This document shows positions 66 to 62,312 of a stretch of DNA of 64,000 bases, one piece after another; position 1 is the stretch's first letter; each line of letters begins with the position of its first letter. Under the pieces are notes generated by a model. It did not search any database and was not told where the DNA came from. It saw nothing but the letters and a program-made list of their open reading frames with translations. This DNA is from Candidatus Falkowbacteria bacterium (GTDB lineage Bacteria; Patescibacteriota; Patescibacteriia; Patescibacteriales; UBA12075): positions 9,989-73,988 of the forward strand of contig JAZDLN010000022.1 in NCBI GenBank assembly GCA_043801965.1. The letters are read 5' to 3'. Made by a program: the position numbers and the translations under genes.

Positions 66-96
66 ATAAAAAACAATCCCGAAGTTTCGGGATTGT
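66..96 (-). terminator. Intrinsic terminator downstream of pnp
   Basis: Hairpin acaatcccgaag/tttcgggattgt (73-96) followed on the minus strand by a T-run (plus-strand A-run 67-72), just 3' of the pnp stop. Confidence 0.7.
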
Positions 97-7930: not shown

Positions 7931-8009
7931 TCCGCCTATTAGCGGATCACTTAATTGCCCTCACCCGGTCCGCCGGTTGGCGGACCACCCTCTCCGATTC
8001 CGGAGAGGG
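7931..8009. repeat. Cluster of three GC-rich hairpins
   Basis: tccgc-ctatta-gcgga (7931-7946), ggtccgcc-ggtt-ggcggacc (7967-7986) and ccctctccg-attc-cggagaggg (7988-8009). None has a T-run. Confidence 0.7.
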
Positions 8010-8037
8010 GCTTGTATGATGGTAATATTTTTTAATC

Positions 8038-8104: not shown

Positions 8105-8176
8105 GGCGCCATCGTCTAGTGGTTAGGACATGAGGTTTTCATCCTCACAACCGGGGTTCTATTCCCCGTGGCGTCA
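8105..8176 (+). tRNA. tRNA-Glu (anticodon TTC)
   Basis: Hand-folded cloverleaf: acceptor ggcgcca/tggcgtc, anticodon arm tgagg-ttTTCat-cctca, T arm cgggg-ttctatt-ccccg. 72 nt, no encoded CCA. Confidence 0.9.
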
Positions 8177-8255
8177 CAATAAACAAAAAGCGGCCGTGGC
8201 CGTTTTTTGTTTCTTATTTACAAAATAACAAATGAATGCTATTTTTTTAATTACT

Positions 8256-15821: not shown

Positions 15822-15903
15822 GCGGACGTGGTGAAACTGGTAGACACGCTAGCCTTAGGAGCTAGTGGAGAAATCCGTGTGGGTTCAAGTCCCTCCGTCC
15901 GCA
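15822..15903 (+). tRNA. tRNA-Leu (anticodon TAG)
   Basis: Class II cloverleaf: acceptor gcggacg/cgtccgc, anticodon arm ctagc-ctTAGga-gctag, long variable arm, T loop ttcaagt. Confidence 0.9.
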
Positions 15904-15925
15904 CTATTTTTTAAGTTGTGGGCTT

Positions 15926-15998
15926 CCGCTCAGCCCCGAGAATTCGGGATGAGCGGATCCGCTCGCGAAGCCGAGCGGACAAGTCCCTCCGTCCGCAC
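15926..15998 (+). repeat. Two GC hairpins followed by a 19-nt duplicate of the tRNA-Leu(TAG) 3' end
   Basis: ccgctca...tgagcgg (15926-15956), tccgctcg-cgaagc-cgagcgga (15958-15979), then caagtccctccgtccgcac (15980-15998), identical to 15886-15904. Confidence 0.8.
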
Positions 15999-17421: not shown

Positions 17422-17904
17422 TTACCTGTTTTGGTAATATTTTTGATCGTTATTATTGTCTTGGCCGCGTCCATCGTTATTCCGGCCGTAATTGCCATTT
17501 CGCATCTGCCAGTCCTGCCGTTGCTCGCGCCAGGTTTGGCGCTGCTCTTTCCAGTCTTGTCGTAGTTCACGCCAGTTTTGACGTTGGTTTTGCCAGTCCT
17601 GCCGTTGCTTGTGCTGGTTTTTATCTTGCTTATGCCAGCCATCTCCTCTGTAATCATTTTGATTGCGATTATTTTGGCGACCCTGATCACCGCCTTGCTG
17701 ATTACCGCGTTGATTGCGCCAATCACCAGGAGTATTTTGGTGATAATATCTGGGCCTGTTTTCCGTGTAAGAGTAATTCGTTTTTTCGCCATAACCGCTT
17801 TGATCGCGCCAATCATAATCTTGGCTATAATTGTCGGCAATAACCGGCGAGCTCATAACGACCGCGAACATCACTACAAACAGAAATGTAAATAATCTAT
17901 TCAT
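17422..17904 (-). CDS. Secreted low-complexity Q/R/N/D/W-rich protein with RQxW heptad repeats
   Basis: GGAGG SD. Signal peptide MNRLFTFLFVVMFAVVMSSPVIA. The mature part lacks aliphatic residues. RQDWQNQ RQNWREL RQDWKEQ RQTWREQ RQDWQMR. Confidence 0.6.
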   Translation of the reverse strand: MNRLFTFLFVVMFAVVMSSPVIADNYSQDYDWRDQSGYGEKTNYSYTENRPRYYHQNTPGDWRNQRGNQQGGDQGRQNNRNQNDYRGDGWHKQDKNQHKQRQDWQNQRQNWRELRQDWKEQRQTWREQRQDWQMRNGNYGRNNDGRGQDNNNDQKYYQNR

Positions 17905-25175: not shown

Positions 25176-25532
25176 ATGAATAAAATTATATTTATTGTTT
25201 TATTAGTAGTATTTTCTTTTTTATCCAGCTTTAATGTTTATGCTTTACCGACTTGCGCAGATGGTGATGTCTGCCTTGAATCCCCTATTGACGCTGAAAA
25301 TCCGCAGGAGTTGATCGGTATAGCCATAAGGGGTCTTTTGGGTATAGTCGGATCCCTCGCCCTGATCATGTTCATTTACGGCGGTTTTACCTGGATGCTG
25401 GCGGCCGGAAGCGCGGAAAAAGTCCAGAAAGGCAAGAATATTCTAATCTGGGCTACGATCGGATTGGTCGTGATATTTTCCGCCTACGCTTTAGTCAGGT
25501 TCGTTTTTGAGGGATTGGGGATCACGCAGTAA
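25176..25532 (+). CDS. VirB2/TrbC-like pilin paralogue (divergent, Cys-containing N-terminus)
   Basis: ATG 25176 (MNKIIF...) preferred over TTG 25167. GGFTWMLAAGSAEKVQKGK core between two TM helices. Confidence 0.7.
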   Translation: MNKIIFIVLLVVFSFLSSFNVYALPTCADGDVCLESPIDAENPQELIGIAIRGLLGIVGSLALIMFIYGGFTWMLAAGSAEKVQKGKNILIWATIGLVVIFSAYALVRFVFEGLGITQ

Positions 25533-25622: not shown

Positions 25623-25671
25623 ATGCGTTATGCGTTATGCGTTATGCGTTATGCGTTATGCGTTATGCGTT
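25623..25671. repeat. Perfect heptanucleotide tandem repeat (ATGCGTT) x7
   Basis: Counted directly. Overlaps the last codons and stop of the ROK gene and extends into its 3' flank. Confidence 0.95.
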
Positions 25672-50342: not shown

Positions 50343-50391
50343 AAAGTTAAGGTTTATAATATATTTTTAAAGGAAAGGGGGTGGGAAATAT

Positions 50392-50793
50392 ATGAAAAAA
50401 ATATTATTCGTCTTAATTCCGATGATATTGGTTTTGTTGCCGGTTTTTTCTTTTGTCTTGACCGCCCACGCTCAATCCGAGGCTGACGTTATGCTTTGGG
50501 GCGGATTAGAGGGAGACGTCCAGGCCACTACCGGTTTAGGCAATACCGATCCGCGGGAAATGGCGGCCCGGGTGGTCAATATCATGTTGGGCTTTATCGG
50601 CATTATCGCCGTTATTATTATTTTATTGGGCGGATTCAAATGGATGACGGCCGCCGGCAACGAGGAGAAGGTGGATGAGGCTAAAAAACTCATCGGCTCC
50701 GGGGTGATCGGTTTGATAATATTATTGGCCGCTTTTGCGCTGGCCCAATTTATCCTGAACGCTCTTTACGGAGCTACCGGAGCTATCGGATAA
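50392..50793 (+). CDS. VirB2/TrbC-like pilin paralogue 1 (major-type)
   Basis: 133 aa. Signal peptide ...LTAHA/QS, GLGNTDPRE, GGFKWMTAAGNEEKVDEAKK between two TM helices. GGGGGTG SD. Confidence 0.8.
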   Translation: MKKILFVLIPMILVLLPVFSFVLTAHAQSEADVMLWGGLEGDVQATTGLGNTDPREMAARVVNIMLGFIGIIAVIIILLGGFKWMTAAGNEEKVDEAKKLIGSGVIGLIILLAAFALAQFILNALYGATGAIG

Positions 50794-50885
50794 TTTTAAA
50801 AGTGATATATATTTGACGAGGGAAAACCGGAAAAAAGCACCAGAAATCGGATATTTTTCCCAAGTCCATAGAAAGGGGGTGAAAT

Positions 50886-51287
50886 ATGAAAAAAATAATG
50901 TTCGTTTTAGCGATTTTTACTTTAACGGTATTACCGATCTTTTCTTTTTGTTTGACCGCTCACGCCCAGTCGGACGCCGACAATATGCTTTGGGGCAATT
51001 ATGAAACCAACGTCCAGGCAGCGACCGGATTAGGAAACACCGACCCCCGGCAGATGGCCGCTCAAGTCGTTAATATCATGTTGGGATTTTTGGGCATAAT
51101 AGCCGTAGTGATCATATTGTTGGGCGGATTCAAATGGATGACGGCCGCCGGAGACGAGGCGAAAGTTGATGAAGCCAAGAAATTGATCGGTGCCGGCGTT
51201 ATCGGCTTGGTCGTGATCTTAGCCGCGTTCGGAGTCGCCCAATTTGTTATCAACGCCTTATACGGAGCCACTGGCGCTACCGGTTAG
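50886..51287 (+). CDS. VirB2/TrbC-like pilin paralogue 2 (major-type)
   Basis: 133 aa, near-identical architecture to paralogue 1. GGGGGTG SD. Confidence 0.8.
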   Translation: MKKIMFVLAIFTLTVLPIFSFCLTAHAQSDADNMLWGNYETNVQAATGLGNTDPRQMAAQVVNIMLGFLGIIAVVIILLGGFKWMTAAGDEAKVDEAKKLIGAGVIGLVVILAAFGVAQFVINALYGATGATG

Positions 51288-51330
51288 TATTATATAATTA
51301 CCTGCTACAGCCTTTGATAAATCAGCGGAT

Positions 51331-51395
51331 GTCCGATTTAAAAAGCGGACTCCGCCGCCATAAACACGAAAGATGCATCGCGTTTATGGCGGCGG
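51331..51395 (+). promoter_or_regulatory. Conserved double RNA hairpin between pilin genes 2 and 3
   Basis: gtccg...cggac (51331-51350) and ccgccgccataaacacg-N10-cgcgtttatggcggcgg (51352-51395). No T-run. Confidence 0.55.
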
Positions 51396-51481
51396 AAACA
51401 AAAAGGAATTAGCGGTTTCTGTTTAAGGTTATAGTTAGCATTGATTTTATTTTTTATTATTCAATAGATTGGGGGTGAAAT

Positions 51482-51883
51482 ATGAAAAAAACTTTTTTCG
51501 TTTTAGCTTTATCCGTTTTGGTGATTTTGCCGGTTTTCGCTTTCGGTCTGACCGCTCACGCGCAAACAGCCGCCGACAACATGCTTTGGGGGGGCTTTGA
51601 GGGTAACGTACAGACCGCTACCGGTTTGGGTAATACCGACCCCAGAGAGATGGCTGGACAGGTGGTCAATATACTCTTAGGATTTTTAGGTATTATAGCG
51701 GTTGTGATCATACTTTTAGGCGGATTCAAGTGGATGACCGCGGCGGGAGACGAGGGCAAGGTTGATGAGGCCAAGAAGCTTATCGGCGCCGGTATTATCG
51801 GCCTGGTCGTTATTTTAGCGGCCTTCGCTATCGCCCAGTTCGTGATCAGCGCTTTGTACAACGCCACGAACGCCACCGGTTAA
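51482..51883 (+). CDS. VirB2/TrbC-like pilin paralogue 3 (major-type)
   Basis: 133 aa. C-terminus ALYNATNATG. GGGGGTG SD. Confidence 0.8.
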   Translation: MKKTFFVLALSVLVILPVFAFGLTAHAQTAADNMLWGGFEGNVQTATGLGNTDPREMAGQVVNILLGFLGIIAVVIILLGGFKWMTAAGDEGKVDEAKKLIGAGIIGLVVILAAFAIAQFVISALYNATNATG

Positions 51884-51909
51884 ATATTTATGTTATTCGA
51901 TCAGCGGGC

Positions 51910-51968
51910 GTCCGCTTTAAAGCGGACTCCGCCGCCATGAACACGATAATTCGCGTTTATGGCCGCAG
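51910..51968 (+). promoter_or_regulatory. Conserved double RNA hairpin between pilin genes 3 and 4
   Basis: Perfect palindrome gtccgctttaaagcggac (51910-51927) and ccgccgccatgaacacg...cgcgtttatggccgcag (51929-51968). Confidence 0.55.
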
Positions 51969-52031
51969 AAAGACCGTTAATCGGAGAGGTTAGTTTCTAA
52001 TTAATTGTTAATAAATAGATAGGGGGTGAAT

Positions 52032-52433
52032 ATGAAAAAAACATTTTTCGTTTTAGCGCTTTCAGCTCTGGTTATATTGCCGGTTTTCGCTTTCGGTCTG
52101 ACCGCTAACGCGCAATCAGCCGCCGACAACATGCTTTGGGGCGGTTTTGAATCTAACGTTCAGACGGCAACGGGTTTGGGGAATACCGACCCTAGGGAAA
52201 TGGCCGGTTCGGTAATTAATATATTTTTGGGATTCTTGGGTATCATTGCCGTATTATTGATCCTGTTCGGCGGTTTTAAATGGATGACGGCCGCCGGAGA
52301 CGAGGGCAAGGTTGACGAGGCTAAAAAGCTGATTGCCGCCGGTATTATCGGTTTGGTCGTTATTTTAGCGGCCTTCGCTATCGCCCAGTTCGTGATCAAC
52401 GCTTTGTACAACGCTACGAACGCCACGGGTTAA
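52032..52433 (+). CDS. VirB2/TrbC-like pilin paralogue 4 (major-type)
   Basis: ATG 52032 (MKKTFF) chosen by analogy with the paralogues and the GGGGGTG SD. Shares a 44-nt identical 3' stretch with paralogue 3. Confidence 0.8.
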   Translation: MKKTFFVLALSALVILPVFAFGLTANAQSAADNMLWGGFESNVQTATGLGNTDPREMAGSVINIFLGFLGIIAVLLILFGGFKWMTAAGDEGKVDEAKKLIAAGIIGLVVILAAFAIAQFVINALYNATNATG

Positions 52434-52475
52434 TCGTCTTTAGCAAAGATCTTTTACGTTTTTTTATACGTGGAT

Positions 52476-52545
52476 ACCCGGTTTTTCTAATCGGGTTCCA
52501 CTGTTATGGGCGTGAAGCAGATTCGCGTTCATGCCCGTAACAGTG
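52476..52545 (+). promoter_or_regulatory. Conserved double RNA hairpin between pilin genes 4 and 5
   Basis: acccg...cgggt (52476-52496) and cactgttatgggcgtgaa...ttcgcgttcatgcccgtaacagtg (52499-52545). The two imperfect positions are G-U wobbles only on the plus-strand RNA. Confidence 0.55.
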
Positions 52546-52566
52546 TTCTAATCATATAGATAATTT

Positions 52567-52953
52567 ATGTTTTCCGTTAAATCCCATTTTGTCGTATTTA
52601 TACTCTTAAGCCTGGTTTTCCTGGCGTTTATCCAGACGGTTTCCGCGGACGGAGGGAAAGAAGCCTTGGATGGCCTTAATATAACCGCCAAAGAAGGCTA
52701 CGGCACAGTACCGCGCGGTACGGTTTCGGCTACCATAGGCAAAATCGTCGGTTCGATACTTGCATTTACCGGTATTATCTTTTTTCTTTTAGTGATTTAC
52801 GGCGGTTTTACCTGGATGATGGCCAGGGGCAACGAGCAGGAAGTCGCAAAAGCGAAGAGTCTGATCGAACAGGCGGCCATTGGTCTTATTATAGTTTTAG
52901 CGGCTTACGCGCTTACCGCTTTTATAGGCCGGGCGCTAACCTCCCCGACCTAA
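52567..52953 (+). CDS. VirB2/TrbC-like pilin paralogue 5 (divergent)
   Basis: 128 aa. GGFTWMMARGNEQEVAKAK core. Unrelated mature N-terminus. No SD. Confidence 0.7.
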   Translation: MFSVKSHFVVFILLSLVFLAFIQTVSADGGKEALDGLNITAKEGYGTVPRGTVSATIGKIVGSILAFTGIIFFLLVIYGGFTWMMARGNEQEVAKAKSLIEQAAIGLIIVLAAYALTAFIGRALTSPT

Positions 52954-52987
52954 AAACGATCCGGATTTTGTCCGGCGGCAGTTTATT

Positions 52988-53392
52988 ATGAAATACGGCC
53001 AAATATTTTTTACAATATTTTTTTTCTTGTGGCTGCTGTCAGCGATTCCGGCGGTTAACGATTGTTCGGCGTATAGTTTTATGGATGAGAGCGGCATCAA
53101 GGAAACCGGACAGGCTACCGGCCATGCTTCCATAAGTCTGACCCAAAGATCCCCGGCACAGATGGTCGGAATGATAATCAAGGTTCTCTTGTCCTTTCTT
53201 GGGGTCGTTTTCCTTATAATAATGATCTACGCCGGTTATTCCTGGATGATAGCCCGGGGCAACGAGCAGGTCGCGGAAAAAGCTAAGGGCACGATCGTTA
53301 ACGCCACGATCGGCCTTATAATAATAATGCTCGCCTATGCCATAACCGTTTTTATCGGCGGGCAATTAGCCGGAAGCACCGCGGTCGGTTAG
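52988..53392 (+). CDS. VirB2/TrbC-like pilin paralogue 6 (divergent)
   Basis: 134 aa. AGYSWMIARGNEQVAEKAK core. No SD. Confidence 0.7.
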   Translation: MKYGQIFFTIFFFLWLLSAIPAVNDCSAYSFMDESGIKETGQATGHASISLTQRSPAQMVGMIIKVLLSFLGVVFLIIMIYAGYSWMIARGNEQVAEKAKGTIVNATIGLIIIMLAYAITVFIGGQLAGSTAVG

Positions 53393-53437
53393 TGATTTTT
53401 TAAAAAACCGGATATATAAAAAGCGAACGAATCACGT

Positions 53438-53845
53438 ATGATTAATCTTTTGAATATCAATAAGTTCATGATTACCGCGGTAATTTTGCTGGCGGTTTTT
53501 ATAGTTCCGTCCGCCGAAGCCGCAAATTTAGGCGATGCGTTTAAGCAACCCTTAAACGACGTGGCCGGATCAACGGGCGCCGGCTACAGAAGCGACGCGG
53601 ATCCGGCCGTACTTATAGGAAAGGTGGTCCAAGCCGCCTTATCTTTCGTGGGCGTAGTATTCCTAATATTGATGATCTATGCCGGATATACGTGGATGCT
53701 CGCCCGGGGCAACGAGCAGCAGGTGGATAAAGCCAAGAATCTGATCACGGCCGCTGTTATCGGCTTGATCATTGTCCTGGCCGCATACGCCATAAGTTAT
53801 TTCGTGTTAAGCCAGATCGGCGCGGAAACCATGCAGGAGGTTTGA
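53438..53845 (+). CDS. VirB2/TrbC-like pilin paralogue 7 (divergent)
   Basis: 135 aa. AGYTWMLARGNEQQVDKAK core. No SD. Confidence 0.7.
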   Translation: MINLLNINKFMITAVILLAVFIVPSAEAANLGDAFKQPLNDVAGSTGAGYRSDADPAVLIGKVVQAALSFVGVVFLILMIYAGYTWMLARGNEQQVDKAKNLITAAVIGLIIVLAAYAISYFVLSQIGAETMQEV

Positions 53846-53873
53846 TGTCCGAATAATATTTATACTTTGATCT

Positions 53874-54275
53874 ATGATGAATAAAATAAAAAAATATCGT
53901 CATTTGTTTTTTCTTTTTTTCTTATTGGCGGTATTGATCGTCCCCTATTTTGTTTTCGCCGCTACGCCGTTGGATAATCTTGAAAAAGTAGGAACCGAAG
54001 GCGCCGGTTACGCCCCCTATGAGGATGGAGAATATAATAATACCTTCATAACCGTGGTGGGCGTTATAATTAAGGCCTTTTTGGGCTTATTGGGCGTAAT
54101 ATTCATCGTATTGATCTTGTACGGCGGTTATAACTGGATGACCGCCGCCGGCGAAGAACAAAAAGTAACGAAAGCGAAAGACACTATCAGCCGGGCCCTT
54201 ATCGGCCTTTTGATAGTAGTCGGTTCATTCGCCATCTGGCAATTCATTTCCAACGCTATCATTTTAGAAATATGA
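53874..54275 (+). CDS. VirB2/TrbC-like pilin paralogue 8 (divergent)
   Basis: 133 aa. GGYNWMTAAGEEQKVTKAK core. No SD. Confidence 0.7.
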   Translation: MMNKIKKYRHLFFLFFLLAVLIVPYFVFAATPLDNLEKVGTEGAGYAPYEDGEYNNTFITVVGVIIKAFLGLLGVIFIVLILYGGYNWMTAAGEEQKVTKAKDTISRALIGLLIVVGSFAIWQFISNAIILEI

Positions 54276-54682
54276 TAATTAAGACCATAAAAAAAATATT
54301 CAGGTATGGATTAGGCGCCCTTTTCCTAATCCCCTTTTTCGGAGCTAGGGCCGCGCTGCTTACAGGAGATACCGCGGACAGGATAATAGGTGCCGGCGAT
54401 AGTCTGGGTACGGCGGCCGGTTTCGCTTCCGGCCAGAACCCGGGGAGCATTGTGGCCACGATAATTACAGGTTTTTTAAGCCTACTAGGCATTATATTTA
54501 TCGTGCTTATAATATACGGCGGCTATAGCTGGATGACGGCCGCCGGTGAGGAGCAAAAAGTAGAAAAAGCCAAAGACACGATCAAGCGCGCCGTAATAGG
54601 CCTGATCATAATAGTGGCCGCTTATTCGATCACTTACTTTGTTTTTACCGCCCTGGACGCCGCGATGAGCGGAAATCCCTAG
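54272..54682 (+). CDS. VirB2/TrbC-like pilin paralogue 9 (divergent)
   Basis: 136 aa. GGYSWMTAAGEEQKVEKAK core. 4-nt ATGA overlap with paralogue 8. Confidence 0.7.
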   Translation: MIIKTIKKIFRYGLGALFLIPFFGARAALLTGDTADRIIGAGDSLGTAAGFASGQNPGSIVATIITGFLSLLGIIFIVLIIYGGYSWMTAAGEEQKVEKAKDTIKRAVIGLIIIVAAYSITYFVFTALDAAMSGNP

Positions 54683-55535: not shown

Positions 55536-55701
55536 GGCCTGGTAGCCAAGCGGTAAGGCAATCCCGACGCTTCGGGACAAAACTGCCGCATATATAAGCT
55601 GATTTTAAGCACAATCATGGCCTGGTAGCCAAGCGGTAAGGCAATCCCGACGCTTCGGGACAAAACTGCCGCATATATAAGCTGATTTTAAGCACAATCA
55701 T
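55536..55701 (+). repeat. Two perfect 83-bp tandem units, each holding a tRNA-Cys 5' fragment, a 16-nt palindrome and an AT-rich spacer
   Basis: Units 55536-55618 and 55619-55701 are identical. Each has 26 nt matching the tRNA-Cys 5' end, TCCCGACGCTTCGGGA replacing cagtttg, then caaaactg matching the tRNA, then 33 nt of unrelated sequence. Confidence 0.95.
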
Positions 55702-55773
55702 GGCCTGGTAGCCAAGCGGTAAGGCAACAGTTTGCAAAACTGTCATGCACCGGTTCAAATCCGGTCCAGGCCT
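55702..55773 (+). tRNA. tRNA-Cys (anticodon GCA)
   Basis: Acceptor ggcctgg/ccaggcc, anticodon arm acagt-ttGCAaa-actgt, T arm accgg-ttcaaat-ccggt. 72 nt. Confidence 0.9.
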
Positions 55774-55784
55774 CAAATTAAATT

Positions 55785-58598: not shown

Positions 58599-58805
58599 AT
58601 TGCTATTCTAGCTTATTTTTTCGGAAAAATAAAGAGAAATTAAAAACCCTACCAAAAATAAAAAAGAGGCTAAAGCATTAACCTCTTGCTAAGTTCCTTA
58701 TAACGCTGTTTCCATGGATAGAAGTTTACACGGTGAGCTGTTTTTTTCGTAAGTTATCCAGCCTCGCTTTCTAAGCGGATCGCATAGCAATATGGGGGAA
58801 AATAA

Positions 58806-59558
58806 CTATTTGTTTTGCGGTAAAGATGCCCACATTAGTTCAAAAAATTCCCGGAACATTTTTATGATATGTTTGTTCTCAATGGTAAGGGCCATGATGG
58901 GCGTGCCGACCAAGTGTATGAAAATTCGATCGGGTACGATACGGAGAACGGTCGAAAGCTGGGTGGTGGCCGGCAGAATTTTTATGTTCATACCCATGGC
59001 GCTTTGAATTTGTTTGTACTTTCCTGCTTCTTCACTTTGGGTGAGCAAAAGTCTTTTTTTAACACCCATCTTAGCTTCTCGTTCAAAAATCTTGGTAAAA
59101 AATACTTCATCAAGGTCCAAAGTTTTTTTAGTATCACCCACAACCAGGATTTCGTCGCGCAGGCTCATTTTTTGTGAAAATTCGGTATAGATATTTTTGA
59201 TCGCTTCCAGACCTTCGTAATAGCGGATCACGCTGTCTTTGGCATCTTCGCGGAAAAGCGACATAAAATCAGGCAGGGTTTCTTTGAAACGCTGTCTTTT
59301 TCGTTCCAAGATTTTGTCCAATTGTTCCGGGCTCTCGGCCACGTACTGTTTTTTCCAGCCTTTCATATCAATACGCATCAACCCCAGGTTTTTCAGGGGA
59401 TCAATCAGGGAGTGTACAGTAGTTCGTTTCATATTGGCTTCGCCGGCAATCTTGGTTATTGAGCTGGGGCCCAAAGATAAAGCGCTCAGGTACACCTGAG
59501 CCTCATTTTCAGACAAACCCAAATCTATCAAAACCTTTTTTAAGTCCTTATTTTTCAT
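58806..59558 (-). CDS. TrmB-family transcriptional regulator
   Basis: 250 aa. N-terminal LGLSENEAQVYLALSLGPSSITKIA winged-helix motif typical of TrmB. Confidence 0.8.
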   Translation of the reverse strand: MKNKDLKKVLIDLGLSENEAQVYLSALSLGPSSITKIAGEANMKRTTVHSLIDPLKNLGLMRIDMKGWKKQYVAESPEQLDKILERKRQRFKETLPDFMSLFREDAKDSVIRYYEGLEAIKNIYTEFSQKMSLRDEILVVGDTKKTLDLDEVFFTKIFEREAKMGVKKRLLLTQSEEAGKYKQIQSAMGMNIKILPATTQLSTVLRIVPDRIFIHLVGTPIMALTIENKHIIKMFREFFELMWASLPQNK

Positions 59559-59786
59559 AATAATTGAAAAAATTTACAATTTTGACGAAATTTTTGTCGA
59601 CATAATTTATTCTAACATAAAACAAAAAATAATACAAATATATAGTATTGCCGACAAATATGACAAATATTCAGTATTATGACATAATGTAGTTATAAAG
59701 TCAAAAGAACATTGAAAACTAAAACCACCTTAATAAAATCCATCGGGGATTTTGGATGGGCGGTTACATTTAAAAGGAGAATAGTC

Positions 59787-60326
59787 ATGAATAACAGAGA
59801 GGAAGCAAAAAAATTCTTAGAGGAAGTTCTTGAAGTGATTAGGAAAAAGGATCGAGGAATTTTTTTCGAAAACAACGAAGTCAACCCAGAAAAAAGCATA
59901 TATCTTTTGGATAATGGTGAAGTTTGTGGGATGATTTATGGCCTTTCCGTCAGAAAGGGAGAGGAATGGATGGATTGGGGGTATGAAAAGCGGCCCCTAA
60001 ACCACATGCTGGTTCTGAACGCTATTGCGATAGTTCTTAAAAAGCGTGGAGTGAAAGTGTTCAAAGACGGGAGCAAGATAGTAATAGTACAAAAACATGA
60101 TACCGAGACAAAGCACCCAAACATTCACATGCTGTATGCCAGGTCGGGTTTTATGGGGGGAGTGCATGGAAGCCGGGCTTCCATATTCGCAGACGCGCTT
60201 GCCAATGAATACAGATATGATAGTGAGGCAGATACTTTGATTTGCCGCCCGAGGGTTTGGCCAGGTGACCCGAAAGAACCGGAATATATTGTTCCTTTCT
60301 TCTCTTTAACGGAAGAAGAAATTTAA
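59787..60326 (+). CDS. Hypothetical protein
   Basis: Start at MNNREEAKK with AAGGAG SD. No motif recognised. Confidence 0.55.
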   Translation: MNNREEAKKFLEEVLEVIRKKDRGIFFENNEVNPEKSIYLLDNGEVCGMIYGLSVRKGEEWMDWGYEKRPLNHMLVLNAIAIVLKKRGVKVFKDGSKIVIVQKHDTETKHPNIHMLYARSGFMGGVHGSRASIFADALANEYRYDSEADTLICRPRVWPGDPKEPEYIVPFFSLTEEEI

Positions 60327-60333
60327 TTTCATA

Positions 60334-60367
60334 GAGTCAAGCGCTGTACAACGCTTGGCTCTTTTTC
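60334..60367 (+). terminator. Intrinsic terminator
   Basis: gagtcaagcg-N8-cgcttggctc hairpin plus T5. Confidence 0.7.
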
Positions 60368-60380
60368 TTTTATGTGAAGT

Positions 60381-60412
60381 AAAACAAAAGACTGTTCTTT
60401 CTGGAAACAGTC
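60381..60412 (-). terminator. Intrinsic terminator closing the rplS-tRNA-GIY-YIG transcription unit
   Basis: On the minus strand, a gactgtt-tccagaaag-aacagtc hairpin followed by ttttgtttt. Confidence 0.65.
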
Positions 60413-60420
60413 CCCGTATG

Positions 60421-60499
60421 TGGACGCGCAATCCCGAAGCGTCGGGAGAACCTAGGACCCCCTCGGTGTAAATCCCGAAGCGTCGGGACTCTAACCAGC
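60421..60499 (-). pseudogene. Partial tRNA-Val copy (3' ~60 nt) with two 16-nt palindromes substituted
   Basis: Sense strand: gctggttagag[TCCCGACGCTTCGGGA]tttacaccgagggggtcctaggttc[TCCCGACGCTTCGGGA]ttgcgcgtcca. The palindromes replace cacctcg and gaatcc of the intact tRNA. Confidence 0.85.
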
Positions 60500-60751
60500 C
60501 GCTTTTGATCCGCACAATTTTTTATAAAATTTTTTGCTTTTCTGATTTTTTAAAAATTTTTCCTGAATCATGGCCTCTGACCTGGTGTCATATTTTTCTT
60601 GATAAACAAGATGCCATCCGCCGTTATATTTAGAAGTATAAACAGAAAGCCGGTTTTGGTGTTCAAAAATTCTTCTTCTTAAATTATCGGTTTGTCCAAT
60701 ATAAAATTTATCGTATTTTTTGTTGTACAAAATATAAACAAAAAATTTCAT
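60491..60751 (-). CDS. Small GIY-YIG nuclease-family protein (YhbQ/UPF0213-like)
   Basis: 86 aa. FVYILYN...KFYIGQTDNLRRRIFEH ... E (GIY-YIG, Arg, Glu pattern). The ATG lies 2 nt after the tRNA-Val 3' end. The last codons and stop lie inside the tRNA-Val remnant. Confidence 0.85.
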   Translation of the reverse strand: MKFFVYILYNKKYDKFYIGQTDNLRRRIFEHQNRLSVYTSKYNGGWHLVYQEKYDTRSEAMIQEKFLKNQKSKKFYKKLCGSKAAG

Positions 60752-60752
60752 G

Positions 60753-60826
60753 TGGACGCGCAAGGATTCGAACCTAGGACCCCCTCGGTGTAAACGAGGT
60801 GCTCTAACCAGCTGAGCTACGCGTCC
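60753..60826 (-). tRNA. tRNA-Val (anticodon TAC)
   Basis: Sense strand: ggacgcg ta gctc agctggtta gagc a cctcg ttTACac cgagg gggtc ctagg ttcgaat ccttg cgcgtcc a. One U-U mismatch in the T stem. Confidence 0.9.
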
Positions 60827-60859
60827 CCCAACAACTAATATATAACATTAGTTGTTGCA

Positions 60860-60946
<87 letters not shown>

Positions 60947-60992
60947 TTTGTTTGTGATCAATGTTTATAATTAGTTTGGATATTCTCTCCCC

Positions 60993-61098
60993 GGACTTGC
61001 CCCGTCATCCGACGGGGTCCGCCTCGGGCGGAAACCTTCACGAGGTTGCCCCATCCCGCCCTCCGGCGGGACGTGTTCAATTATTCCACCACGTCCGC
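60993..61098 (-). pseudogene. Degenerate tRNA-Leu(GAG) copy with GC hairpins replacing the anticodon arm and inserted in the T arm
   Basis: Sense strand: gcggacgtggtggaa..gaacacg [tcccgcc-ggag-ggcggga] tggggcaacctcgtgaaggtt [tccgcc-cga-ggcgga][ccccgtc-ggat-gacgggg] caagtcc. The 3' acceptor strand is missing. Confidence 0.75.
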
Positions 61099-61108
61099 TT
61101 TGTTTCGC

Positions 61109-61492
61109 TTAGGCAATCTTTTTTTCTTTCAACCGTTTTTTGTAATCTCCCCGGAGGAAGGTAAGTTTAGCCCGCCGTACCCGCGCCTGCTTTTTGATCT
61201 CTATCTTCTCGATCGTCGGCAAAGCCAGAGGATATATTTTTTCCACGCCTACGCCGTCGGAAACCTTGCGGACCGTTATGGTCGCGCCGTTTTCCCGGCC
61301 GTGTTTGCGGGCGATGATCATGCCCTCGAAATACTGCACCCTTTCCTTTTCCTCTCCTTTCGCGTTCAATTCCTTGATCTTCTGGTAAATACGCACGGTC
61401 ATGCCGGGCTTTAGGTCCTGGGTCGCTTTGACGGCCCCTTCTTTTTTATCGGTTGCCGCCGGGGATTTTTCCTCTTTTTTATCGTTGGTCAT
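61109..61492 (-). CDS. rplS: 50S ribosomal protein L19 with a ~25-aa charged N-terminal extension
   Basis: 127 aa. PGMTVRIYQKIKE...ERVQYFEGMIIARKH...TITVRK ... IEKIEI pattern of L19. Confidence 0.9.
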   Translation of the reverse strand: MTNDKKEEKSPAATDKKEGAVKATQDLKPGMTVRIYQKIKELNAKGEEKERVQYFEGMIIARKHGRENGATITVRKVSDGVGVEKIYPLALPTIEKIEIKKQARVRRAKLTFLRGDYKKRLKEKKIA

Positions 61493-61561
61493 ATAAAGTA
61501 ATATAAAAATAGAACAATCGGGTTCTATTAGACGATGTTTTTATTTAATTATTCTTCTCTA

Positions 61562-61590
61562 ATACTATGATAAAAACCGTTAATTGTCAA
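61562..61590 (-). promoter_or_regulatory. Promoter candidate for rplS
   Basis: On the minus strand, TTGACA (61590-61585), 17-nt spacer, TAGTAT (61567-61562). Confidence 0.5.
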
Positions 61591-61615
61591 GAGTTTGCCG
61601 CCAAGTTCCTTTTAA

Positions 61616-61642
61616 TCGTAAAAACAGCCGTTTTCAACGGTT
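61616..61642 (-). terminator. Intrinsic terminator for the small ORF at 61668
   Basis: On the minus strand, an accgtt-gaaa-acggct-like hairpin followed by gttttt. Confidence 0.5.
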
Positions 61643-61667
61643 TAAACTCTTTTTTCGGGAAATCTTT

Positions 61668-61835
61668 TTAATCAACCGATTGGAAAAAATCACAATGAGC
61701 CGTTTTCGGCACCCTCTGCCCGAGTTCCCGGCAAAAAATTTCTTCACCTTGGATATCACAGCTGCTGCAACGCGGACACTGTTTTTCGTCGTTCCAATAA
61801 TCCTCGGTATAGTTTGATTCGATATCGTGAGACAT
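61668..61835 (-). CDS. Candidate small Cys-rich protein (55 aa from MSHDIES)
   Basis: CPRCSSC...C...C pattern and its own terminator. The start is uncertain (the track ORF extends to 61874). Confidence 0.35.
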   Translation of the reverse strand: MSHDIESNYTEDYWNDEKQCPRCSSCDIQGEEIFCRELGQRVPKTAHCDFFQSVD

Positions 61836-61934
61836 AGAAAATATTATGATTCCAATATAACATATTTCAGGCAATACTCAAAGACGGGATTCGCCATCCC
61901 GTCTTTATGCCGGATTTTTTGAGCGCGCGGGAAA

Positions 61935-62312
61935 TCAGCCGTCAACGAGAACCTTGAATCCTCCGTAAACCATGCGCTTCACGTCGAAGGGCATCGGTTT
62001 GTCTTTGTATTCCGCGTCGTTCATGAACGGATCCTTCATTACCAGAGCGTTAACGCGATCGCGATGCGCGCGCGAACGATATGTTACATAAGAAAAAACC
62101 ACGAGCTCATTATTTTTTAGCCTGACCAGTTTCGGGAACGGGACGCCCCACTCCGTCTTCAGGTCATCGCCGACGCACTCCTTATAATCCAGGGCGCCGT
62201 ATTTGCGCCATATCTTTCCCGCTTTTTGCGCCATTTTTTTGTAGGCGGGCAGATTTTTTTTCGGCACCACCAATACGAATCCGTCGACGTACGCGCTTTT
62301 TTGTTTTGCCAT
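61935..62312 (-). CDS. DUF1428 (YbaA-like) protein
   Basis: 125 aa. AYVDGFVLVVPKKNLPAYKKMA...WRKYGALDYKEC matches my memory of the DUF1428 family. Confidence 0.7.
   Translation of the reverse strand: MAKQKSAYVDGFVLVVPKKNLPAYKKMAQKAGKIWRKYGALDYKECVGDDLKTEWGVPFPKLVRLKNNELVVFSYVTYRSRAHRDRVNALVMKDPFMNDAEYKDKPMPFDVKRMVYGGFKVLVDG

Follow-up and report, generated by a model that had tools for sequence, protein, structure and literature searches.

A predicted GIY-YIG nuclease gene enclosed by an intact and a hairpin-bearing tRNA-Val copy in Candidatus Falkowbacteria, and its relatives beside other tRNA genes

The tRNA-Val locus

The stretch of DNA analysed here, 64 kb of contig JAZDLN010000022.1 from a Candidatus Falkowbacteria assembly (GCA_043801965.1; hereafter the window), carries a small gene for a predicted GIY-YIG nuclease between an intact tRNA-Val gene and a partial, hairpin-bearing copy of the same tRNA. 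Read along the minus strand, the intact tRNA-Val(TAC) gene (60752..60826; ARAGORN 60826-60752; Rfam tRNA model 60826-60753, 68.2 bits, E 3.8e-14) is followed by one base (C), by a stand-alone GIY-YIG open reading frame (ORF) of 86 aa (60491..60751; Pfam PF01541, 51.5 bits against a cutoff of 22.6, E 1.3e-13), by the partial tRNA-Val copy (60421..60499) and by an intrinsic terminator with an 11-bp stem and a T-run (60387..60415), which ends the unit and has its ortholog directly 3' of tRNA-Val in one relative (L094; L numbers denote loci of relatives). The tRNA gene does not encode CCA, and the junction reads ...GTCCA-C-ATG, so that the ATG at 60751 lies 1 nt past the discriminator A; at the other end the stop codon TAG (60493-60491) lies inside the partial copy, within GGTTAGAG.

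Alignment to the intact gene shows that the partial copy spans tRNA positions 15-76 and contains two hairpin substitutions; it reads GCTGGTTAGAG / TCCCGACGCTTCGGGA / TTTACACCGAGGGGGTCCTAGGTTC / TCCCGACGCTTCGGGA / TTGCGCGTCCACAT. The three blocks outside the hairpins (11, 25 and 14 nt) are identical to intact tRNA-Val at positions 15-24, 32-56 and 63-76, plus a few flanking bases, the 14-nt block extending 3 nt beyond the tRNA end, to 60418. Hairpin 1, TCCCGACGCTTCGGGA (60473..60488, minus strand), stands in place of CACCTCG (positions 25-31, the 5' strand of the anticodon stem), and hairpin 2, an identical 16-mer (60432..60447, minus strand), in place of GAATCC in the T loop and stem. Smith-Waterman alignment of tRNA-Val to its downstream flank gives a score of 54 against a shuffled maximum of 23, and a search of the window for the 16-mer, allowing up to two mismatches, returns 10 matches where 0.02 are expected. 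Neither ARAGORN nor Rfam calls a tRNA in the copy, and folded as RNA it is not exceptional (z = -1.46). An initial annotation, made from the letters of this DNA, had already placed an intact tRNA-Val at 60826-60753, the 86-aa ORF at 60751-60491, a tRNA-Val copy at 60499-60421 overlapped by the end of the ORF, two tRNA segments each exchanged for the same hairpin (here 60488-60473 and 60447-60432) and a terminator after the copy (60412-60381; here 60415-60387). These elements are all recovered by the tools used here. The ATG does adjoin the tRNA as described; the gap is 1 nt and not two, a negligible discrepancy set by the choice of the tRNA end.

Upstream, after a 33-nt spacer, lies an intact tRNA-Leu(GAG) gene (60860..60946, minus strand; ARAGORN and Rfam), and beyond it rplS, coding for ribosomal protein L19 (61109..61492, minus strand; 100% and 95% identical L19 in Falkowbacteria metagenome-assembled genomes (MAGs), with a Pfam Ribosomal_L19 match in the ortholog), which was used as the synteny anchor for close relatives and is the first gene of the presumed transcription unit. 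The order of that unit is rplS, a partial tRNA-Leu copy (psi-Leu), tRNA-Leu, tRNA-Val, the GIY-YIG gene and the partial tRNA-Val copy (psi-Val).

The predicted nuclease protein

By sequence and structural model the protein is a minimal GIY-YIG domain of the Slx1/UPF0213 type and a predicted nuclease. Among 21 homologs residues Y6, Y17, G19, H31 and E64 are invariant and R27 is nearly so; we take Y6, Y17, R27, H31 and the glutamate equivalent to E75 to be the catalytic positions known from I-TevI. The AlphaFold (AF2) model (mean confidence, pLDDT, 89) has a beta-beta-alpha-beta-alpha-alpha topology, for which Foldseek returns 1zg2 and SLX1 (root-mean-square deviation 2.1-2.6 A over 71-75 residues), with I-TevI more distant, and profile comparison ranks BH0048 (E 3.6e-11) and EF2693 (E 5e-11) before SLX1. 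The two top-ranking proteins, BH0048 (1zg2) and EF2693 (1ywl), of UPF0213/COG2827, share the same minimal domain and length class and are the best fold matches. Beyond the catalytic domain the 86 aa comprise a basic C-terminal helix and no separate DNA-binding domain. Stand-alone bacterial GIY-YIG proteins have been described as a minimal, possibly ancestral Slx1-like branch, in a family that lacks the C-terminal Asn motif (motif E) (Dunin-Horkawicz et al. 2006, PMC1564403); neither that study nor the searchable literature describes a linkage of stand-alone Slx1-like/UPF0213 proteins to tRNA genes.

The subfamily studied here is defined by the motif FYIGQT, and the family as a whole is large, with 4,668 cluster representatives at E up to 1e-10 in a library of 1.8 billion proteins. 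Exact-sequence look-up of the window protein (with 86-aa and 90-aa starts) and of its L19 gave no match, and the relatives were reached by homolog search, which also brought up NCBI proteins of Candidatus Falkowbacteria that are 100% identical to the ORF product and to L19. The ORF is under purifying selection: the ratio of nonsynonymous to synonymous substitution rates is 0.07-0.33 in 12 of the 13 scorable pairs and 0.85 in the remaining one, two of the 15 pairs giving no informative ratio.

Recurrence of the gene between two tRNA copies

Scanning one genome per species yielded 250 relatives, and the best 80 of these were taken, giving 84 loci in all, which were examined with ARAGORN, local alignment and a hairpin finder. 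The relatives of the window ORF at these loci show 38-68% protein identity; L001, L004 and L005 belong to homologs with 59-68%. The initial annotation had proposed a survey for GIY-YIG genes abutting tRNAs, and here the pattern recurs: an automated rule finds the ORF between two copies of one tRNA at 69 of the 84 loci, and inspection at nearly all. In the tRNA-first order an intact same-strand tRNA lies within 130 nt upstream of the ORF (48 of 84 loci), followed by a significant partial copy downstream in 42 of these 48, with a GC hairpin in 38 of the 42. The mirror order, in which a hairpin-modified 5' copy precedes the ORF and the intact tRNA follows it, was found at 26 loci, the partial copy being significant in 24 and carrying a hairpin in 23 of those 24. 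Five loci belong to both classes, hence the 69, and the 15 unclassified loci are mostly contig ends, N-masked stretches or tandem arrays with the tRNA one unit further away.

At least 13 tRNA types are involved (Val, Ala, Asp, Asn, Leu, Ser, Pro, Gln, His, Gly, Phe, Thr and Arg), and the hosts include Patescibacteria, Ignavibacteria, Planctomycetota (on a complete 4.2-Mb chromosome), Acidobacteriota and Bacteroidota, the last with the cultured Eudoraea adriatica DSM 19308, Salegentibacter echinorum DSM 24579, Algoriphagus ornithinivorans DSM 15282 and Flavobacterium chungangensis. Conversely, a protein-blind metagenome scan for the psi-Val hairpin pattern retrieved eight loci, and the nuclease gene was adjacent in all eight. 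In an independent sample, the top family representatives, 43 proteins have an N-terminal extension, which in 20 of them contains the upstream tRNA gene in translation (for example AQLVRA or GFES), which points to gene calls that ran through the tRNA. Judged from sequence, then, the window locus belongs to a widespread family of cassettes that appears not to have been described; a literature search, mostly outside subscription journals, found no description of a tRNA-flanked GIY-YIG cassette, nor does one figure in a 2026 study of Patescibacteria tRNA introns (PMC13011429).

Three of these homologs reproduce the layout of the window. L001 has tRNA-Val(TAC), a CCATG overlap, the ORF and a copy with TCCCGAGTCCTCGGGA and TCCCGAATACTCGGGA at the same two positions, shares the rplS/tRNA-Leu/tRNA-Val synteny with the window, and carries in addition a 5' half-copy bearing the first hairpin upstream of the intact gene; the same layout is found on tRNA-Val(CAC) in L004 and on tRNA-Ala(TGC) in L005. 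The two fragments that flank the intact tRNA in L001 and L004 have acceptor strands that pair with one another and do not match those of the intact gene, and compensatory changes separate the T stems. Because the fragment acceptor strands pair mutually, the fragments appear to be the remains of one resident gene and the intact tRNA another allele, which suggests that at these two loci a resident tRNA gene was split and an incoming allele installed.

At one locus (L121, positions 668-874; also L114) a second, divergent GIY-YIG ORF, 36% identical to that of the window, directly follows tRNA-Leu(GAG) and stands just upstream of a tRNA-Val cassette with the same CGCT-loop hairpin as in the window, so that two cassettes occupy one tRNA operon.

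Hairpin sequence, position and conservation

The hairpins recur with the gene. About 0.3 Mb of loci contain 89 perfect TCCCGA-N2-8-TCGGGA hairpins, against about 0.3 estimated by chance, the commonest form being TCCCGA-N4-6-TCGGGA; further families comprise 18 of the TCCGCC..GGCGGA, 15 of the CCCCGA..TCGGGG and 20 of the CCCGCC/TCCCGC type. Within 150 nt of the ORF ends there are 2.28 hairpins per kb, against 0.12 per kb in the rest of the loci, and the distant ones lie mostly in arrays or in neighbouring partial tRNA copies. The modal loop, GTAC (21 of 89), makes the hairpin a perfect 16-bp palindrome, TCCCGAGTACTCGGGA, from which most other loops differ by one change; perfect palindromes are also formed by TCCGCCAGCTGGCGGA and by the L025 18-mer, TCCCGATGTACATCGGGA. 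Stem pairing is kept through double changes (CCCCGAG..CTCGGGG, TCCCGAT..ATCGGGA), and the stem sequence is kept across phyla at 38-50% protein identity, and between cassettes with 40-60% protein identity, although synonymous sites are saturated, the 16-mer being identical in the window and L121 at 59% protein identity. Imperfect stems hold 13 G.T and 12 A.C mismatches and so give no strand signal that would point to selection on the RNA form, in a noisy sample that makes this a weak test.

The place of the hairpin within the tRNA varies with the clade: the 5' strand of the anticodon stem in Val, Ala and Asp; the D loop, with TCCGCCAGCTGGCGGA, in Asn, Thr and His of the candidate phyla radiation (CPR); the whole anticodon arm in Leu, Gln and Ala-GGC; from the 3' strand through the T stem in Phe; and the T loop in Pro and for the second hairpin of Val and Asn. 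The hairpin family in turn tracks the protein clade. In a Gillisia MAG (L016, 1822-1837) TCCCGAGTCCTCGGGA was seen immediately 3' of an intact tRNA-Asp, outside any partial copy.

Other hairpin-bearing tRNA copies in the window

Four of the five tRNA genes of the window adjoin hairpin-bearing partial copies, and the nuclease gene is present at tRNA-Val only. Upstream of the intact tRNA-Cys (55702-55774) lie two tandem 83-bp units that are 100% identical (55536..55701, plus strand), each made up of tRNA-Cys positions 1-26, a 16-mer hairpin in place of CAGTTTG, CAAAACTG and a 33-nt leader, with no nuclease gene. The hairpin in these units, at 55562-55577 and 55645-55660, is the exact tRNA-Val 16-mer with its loop CGCT, and since this rare loop is common to the tRNA-Val and tRNA-Cys loci, recent copying of hairpins between tRNA loci within the lineage is indicated. 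A partial copy of tRNA-Leu(GAG), covering positions 1 to about 66 (60993..61098, minus strand; Smith-Waterman score 59 against a shuffled maximum of 26), has TCCCGCCGGAGGGCGGGA (61071-61054) in place of the anticodon arm and two more GC hairpins in the T arm, again with no nuclease gene. This copy with its three GC hairpins is kept in relatives L088-L096, in variants such as CCCCGCCCTGGGCGGGG, and L089 has one 153-bp psi-Leu unit more than L088 of the same species, a difference that implies expansion and contraction of the arrays within a population. Directly after the intact tRNA-Leu(TAG) (15822-15904) a partial 3' copy (15918..15998, plus strand; score 38 against a shuffled maximum of 30) bears nested GC hairpins between GGGCTT and CAAGTCC of the T arm, likewise with no nuclease gene.

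Two further hairpin sites were noted. A cluster of GC hairpins upstream of tRNA-Glu (8105-8177), at 7940-8010 on the plus strand, includes TCCGCCGGTTGGCGGA, of the same family as the D-loop hairpin of CPR tRNA-Asn cassettes; local alignment found no statistically significant tRNA-Glu fragment near 7940-8010. At the window edge (75-94, plus strand) AATCCCGAAGTTTCGGGATT is followed by GTTTT and resembles an ordinary terminator built on a TCCCGA/TCGGGA stem, with no tRNA adjacent in the visible sequence.

Taken together, the conservation of the stem despite synonymous saturation, the palindromic modal form and the copy at tRNA-Cys, where the nuclease is lacking, make it likely that the hairpin is a conserved cis element with a specific function. 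The initial annotation had held that the substituted hairpins would abolish any recognition site in the displaced copy, which, given the cross-phylum conservation of the stem and the occurrence of the same variant at the nuclease-free tRNA-Cys, is too narrow. A role as simple breakers of homology against recombinational loss is weakened too, by identical tracts of 40-45 nt and by perfect tandem units of 367 bp.

Signs of mobility, amplification and loss

A neighbour-joining tree of about 80 nuclease cores, built on about 80 aligned residues and having no support values, groups the proteins by tRNA identity, and several of the groups cross phyla: the Phe group unites Bacteroidota and Ignavibacteria, the Asn group Planctomycetota, Acidobacteriota, Bacteroidota and CPR, and within the Val clade both gene orders are intermixed. 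Tandem arrays of 2-4 nuclease genes, each followed by a disabled copy, occur at 14 of the 84 loci, with a period of 367 bp in L025.

Presence at orthologous sites is sporadic. Falkowbacteria RIFOXYB2_FULL_47_14 and related contigs, whose L19 is 95% identical, share the psi-Leu/tRNA-Leu/tRNA-Val order and have an identical tRNA-Val; the gene is intact in the window, in L088-L092 tRNA-Val is followed only by CGATGAAATTTTTTGTTTACATTTT, the first 25 nt of the ORF, and then by unrelated sequence, in L094 (L19 78% identical) by CGATGAATTTTTTT, about 13 nt of the ORF start, and then by the orthologous terminator, and in L095 an identical tRNA-Val precedes CCACATAAAATTGG and nothing recognisable of the ORF. 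ORF stumps behind an identical tRNA-Val indicate that the gene was deleted repeatedly while the tRNA stayed unchanged. The comparison of empty with filled sites, suggested in the initial annotation as a way to define the junctions, thus revealed a polymorphism of presence and absence, but among the closest relatives stumps of 13-25 nt and no clean empty junction.

Between the cassette terminator and tsaE (58600-60380) the window holds a 204-aa ORF without Pfam match on the plus strand and a TrmB-family regulator gene on the minus strand, which are both absent in L088-L094, where tsaE lies within 0.1-0.5 kb of tRNA-Val; the absence of both genes marks the region downstream of tRNA-Val as a rearrangement hot spot.

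Viruses were considered as carriers and a phage vector was rejected: among 2.9 million viral contigs there were two partial relatives, and TCCCGAGTACTCGGGA occurred 15 times, about as often as expected by chance in an estimate that assumes the collection size, and never next to a tRNA.

Expression

A scan of the unit for promoters and terminators found a sole promoter-like site, upstream of rplS (TTGACA-17-TAGTAT, sigma-70-like, 61562..61590, minus strand; 10 of 12 matches in a consensus scan), and a sole terminator, after the partial copy. At 13 of 80 loci, of several tRNA types and mostly in CPR, the ATG lies about 0-4 nt (at most 5 nt) past the tRNA 3' end, and L001, L004 and L005 also have it directly after that end. 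These features lend indirect support to the earlier proposal of co-transcription with the tRNAs and an essentially leaderless mRNA. In 3' maturation RNase Z cuts a CCA-less tRNA after the discriminator base; as tRNA-Val lacks an encoded CCA, the enzyme should cut there and leave a downstream RNA with the 5' end CAUG.... At the Bacteroidota loci the terminator of the tRNA itself lies between the tRNA and the ATG, so that the gene would depend on read-through.

At mirror loci (L012, L015-L016, L018, L024 and others) the ORF ends on a TAG that belongs to the tRNA, either the one at positions 8-10 or one in the D loop; since this codon is inside the mature tRNA, RNase P cleavage would leave the mRNA without a stop codon and may in this way keep nuclease expression in check. 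Both layouts would thus predict very low, self-limited expression, a pattern that is usual for homing endonuclease genes.

Other features of the window

A tandem array of about nine paralogous small ORFs occupies 50380-54680 (plus strand), with one more copy at 25374; all of them share a conserved 64-nt block encoding ...YGG(F/Y)xWMTAAG..., and the encoded proteins resemble small membrane proteins or pilins. The heptamer ATGCGTT is repeated in tandem in about 7 copies at 25623-25671, and a 21-nt periodic repeat of at least 5 units at 17507-17645.

A proposed homing-type selfish cassette

We favour the reading, at a probability of roughly 0.55, that the locus holds a selfish nuclease gene of the homing type, for which tRNA genes serve as target and as homology arms alike. 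The ORF appears to have no promoter, Shine-Dalgarno sequence, stop codon or terminator of its own and to borrow all of them from the tRNA unit. It would be transcribed by read-through of the rplS/tRNA-Leu/tRNA-Val unit, and RNase Z-type 3' maturation of tRNA-Val would leave an mRNA starting 1 nt before the AUG. The nuclease would break the cognate tRNA gene in cassette-free DNA, and repair from the cassette-bearing copy, with tRNA sequence as homology arms, would copy the ORF and create or renew the tRNA duplication; repeated cutting with unequal repair could produce the tandem arrays. Later decay deletes the ORF, as seen in the relatives, and the hairpin-bearing fragments at tRNA-Cys and at both tRNA-Leu genes may be leftovers of such decay. 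The hairpins, which occupy the sites of the tRNA's own inverted repeats, would at the least strip from the spare copy the tRNA-like sequence and structure, and so probably the substrate of the nuclease, and would cause most recombinational excisions to yield a dead tRNA; their conservation suggests an extra, specific role such as nuclease binding.

The gene stands free, outside any intron or intein and beside a conserved host gene, as free-standing homing endonuclease genes do, and because its product has no DNA-binding domain it is classed here as working like a homing cassette and not as a member of the I-TevI/Seg family. In the initial annotation the locus was read as the insertion into a tRNA gene of an element that brought a replacement tRNA end. 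The mobile, selfish footprint of such an element is upheld by some 80 relatives, at least 13 tRNA types, loss, arrays and clades that follow the tRNA, but not the replacement 3' end in the manner of an integrase island, given that there is no integrase, that the disabled copy may lie on either side and that in L001 and L004 the whole tRNA differs in allele.

Several observations weigh against a homing-type cassette. The working tRNA-Val beside the nuclease is identical to that of cassette-free relatives, and a tRNA-directed nuclease would consequently see its own neighbour, so that self-cutting must be tolerated, inefficient or somehow prevented. All characterised GIY-YIG homing endonucleases known to us have a separate DNA-binding module, and the 86-aa protein has none. 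No clean empty site was recovered among the closest relatives, which look like deletions and hence document loss, not gain, and the tree rests on about 80 residues, some of the taxonomic labels of the MAGs being doubtful. Finally, the sequence conservation of the hairpins is not what a purely site-destroying role would predict, and as up to 40-45 nt of uninterrupted identity remain between the copies in L121 and L025, simple homology-breaking does not explain the hairpins either.

Alternative explanations

The conservation of the hairpin is the starting point of the strongest rival, which we regard as possible though clearly less probable than a homing-type cassette: the hairpin would be the nuclease's own binding or cleavage site and the unit that really propagates. 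Nuclease and hairpin would form a mobile pair comparable to RAYT and REP (see below), in contrast to a classical homing endonuclease with naive tRNA genes as its target. The enzyme, minimal and probably either a dimer or structure-specific in the manner of Slx1, would recognise the TCCCGAG-TAC-TCGGGA palindrome or hairpin, and nicks or breaks there would spur recombination among tRNA repeats, duplicating the unit and copying hairpins into other tRNA copies. The stem is conserved across phyla where synonymous sites are saturated, down to the identical 16-mer of the window and L121; the modal variants of both main families, and the L025 18-mer, are perfect palindromes; the hairpin family tracks the protein clade; hairpins are concentrated at ORF ends (2.28 against 0.12 per kb); and the same variant at the nuclease-free tRNA-Cys locus suggests action in trans. 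On the other hand, cruciform extrusion in duplex DNA requires a longer stem than the 6 bp present, repair of a hairpin break from the intact tRNA would erase the hairpin and would not by itself explain its spread, unrelated GC hairpins also accumulate in partial copies, and compensatory stem changes favour selection on structure over a fixed sequence bound by protein. On the side of the enzyme, the nearest solved folds include the structure-specific SLX1 nucleases, and GIY-YIG restriction enzymes do recognise palindromes as oligomers (PMC2241918).

In its fullest form this alternative is a two-part mobile system, to be entertained only tentatively, in which nuclease and 16-bp palindrome would edit tRNA copies in trans and swap a part of the tRNA (D loop, anticodon arm or T loop) for the hairpin, leaving disabled decoys and tandem units at Val, Cys and perhaps both Leu genes; the hairpin would propagate and the ORF travel along only occasionally. 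If true, such a system would represent a novel kind of DNA mobility, in which one hairpin replaces another within tRNA genes, and would provide the first biological role for the ancient stand-alone Slx1-like GIY-YIG domain.

A domesticated host factor is an unlikely explanation. Co-expressed with the tRNAs, the protein would process tRNA-operon transcripts or resolve transcription-linked DNA structures, and the tRNA fragments would be elements of RNA stability or processing. Purifying selection on the ORF, its apparently obligate co-transcription with tRNAs and the position of the hairpin, always within about 40 nt of the ORF end like an mRNA-protecting stem-loop, agree with such a function, and a fusion of a bacterial Slx1-like domain to a TrmH-type tRNA methyltransferase is known (PMC1564403). 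The gene was, however, lost in the closest relatives with the tRNA unchanged, is attached to one or a few tRNA genes per genome and to different ones by lineage, and forms tandem arrays; the imperfect stems have no G.U-over-A.C bias (13 against 12), and duplicated, disabled gene fragments are typical of mobile DNA and not of operon design.

The scar of a tyrosine-integrase island, with the tRNA repeats left as attL and attR and the GIY-YIG gene as leftover cargo, is very improbable. In its favour, a complete tRNA gene with its 3' portion directly repeated behind it is what integration classically leaves as attR, and the hairpins lie in the anticodon and T-loop regions, which Williams reportedly named in 2002 as the preferred sublocations of integrase crossover. 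No integrase or recombinase lies between the tRNA repeats, to judge from the ORF list of the window and Pfam scans of the neighbours (TsaE, TrmB and one unknown), nor are other island genes present; the insert is only 261 bp, with its ATG and stop abutting the two tRNA copies; and the same compact layout recurs in about 80 genomes, including mirror 5' copies, unlike att repeats. An integrase island was rejected for lack of a recombinase at the locus.

Least probable of all, and likewise rejected, is an intron or split-gene origin, with the ORF part of a group I intron or with the halves of a split or permuted tRNA-Val being joined as RNA. Group I introns are frequent in tRNA genes of Patescibacteria (PMC13011429), and GIY-YIG enzymes are the classic intron-encoded endonucleases (a weak NCBIfam match to a group I intron endonuclease family reaches 24.6 bits, the cutoff being 56). 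The upstream tRNA-Val, however, is whole and by itself scores 68 bits, Rfam group I and II intron models have no match over 59500-62000 at E up to 1, the 261-bp insert is wholly coding with no room for a ribozyme, and the downstream copy has no 5' acceptor strand.

Comparison with known systems

Among known systems the closest analogue of the proposed homing-type cassette appears to be SegB, a phage-borne protein of the I-TevI/UvrC lineage that has about 220 aa and binds DNA through a C-terminal domain. SegB is a free-standing GIY-YIG homing endonuclease encoded in the tRNA cluster of phages T4 and T6, and its cleavage motif inside tRNA genes, RAWTSGAAC, is complementary to the T-loop consensus GTTCSAWTY (PMC13096335). 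SegB promotes inheritance of the tRNA region and tandem amplification of tRNA and segB, and cutting of the donor itself is tolerated (PMC13096335; Brok-Volchanskaya 2008 therein). Both systems thus have a GIY-YIG gene among tRNA genes and tandem units of tRNA and nuclease, and one of the window hairpins replaces exactly the T-loop segment that matches the SegB cut motif. The segB gene lies, however, between different tRNAs, with neither a disabled tRNA duplicate nor a conserved hairpin, whereas the window protein has 86 aa, belongs to the Slx1/UPF0213 lineage, is chromosomal and is almost absent from viral contigs.

A mobile GIY-YIG ORF of Allomyces mitochondrial atp6 (a fungal gene) reportedly (Paquin, Laforest and Lang, in 1994) inserts at the end of an essential gene, supplies a substitute segment that preserves its function and leaves the displaced one as a downstream pseudogene fragment, as do similar free-standing endonuclease genes of organelles. 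The logic of replacing a gene end and displacing the resident segment downstream is shared with the cassette, but the Allomyces host gene is protein-coding, the ORF is fused in frame and much larger, and there are no hairpins or mirror layouts. With integrase islands the cassette has in common an intact tRNA followed by a direct repeat of its 3' part, the tRNA staying functional; it differs in having no integrase, a cargo of 261 bp and repeats that may be 5' parts and are broken by hairpins.

Repetitive extragenic palindromic (REP) sequences and their REP-associated tyrosine transposases (RAYT) offer another likeness, short GC-rich palindromes that multiply in a genome and flank one small nuclease gene, with conserved stems and variable loops. 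Membership in that class was rejected: RAYT is an HUH/Y1 enzyme and REPs are scattered between genes, whereas the cassette hairpins are restricted to tRNA copies and accompany a GIY-YIG nuclease, which is hydrolytic. The group I introns of Patescibacteria tRNA genes occur in the same phylum and the same target genes and often encode GIY-YIG endonucleases; the cassette has no ribozyme, leaves the tRNA uninterrupted and keeps its ORF outside the gene. What sets the cassette apart from known systems is the combination of a minimal Slx1-type enzyme, borrowed signals, a hairpin-disabled duplicate on either side, a conserved palindrome and chromosomal spread.

Significance

Structures of minimal GIY-YIG proteins that stand alone (UPF0213, Slx1-like) have been available for about 20 years (1zg2 and 1ywl date from 2005), but to our knowledge these proteins have no known function. 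In the FYIGQT subfamily the context is nearly invariant, the gene lying between a tRNA gene and its hairpin-disabled duplicate, and this provides a lead to function in the form of a testable hypothesis of a selfish nuclease acting on tRNA genes. As tRNA sequence is conserved everywhere, it would offer universal homology arms, which suggests a route by which a homing-type element could pass across phyla. The expression strategy is compact, the start context, stop, promoter and terminator all appearing to come from the tRNA operon, and the conserved 16-bp palindrome could be the recognition element of an 86-aa nuclease, which would be of practical interest. The cassette would also account for unusual pieces of tRNA-like sequence, for partial tRNAs in tandem and for ORFs wrongly called with an extended N-terminus in the genomes of CPR bacteria and Bacteroidota.

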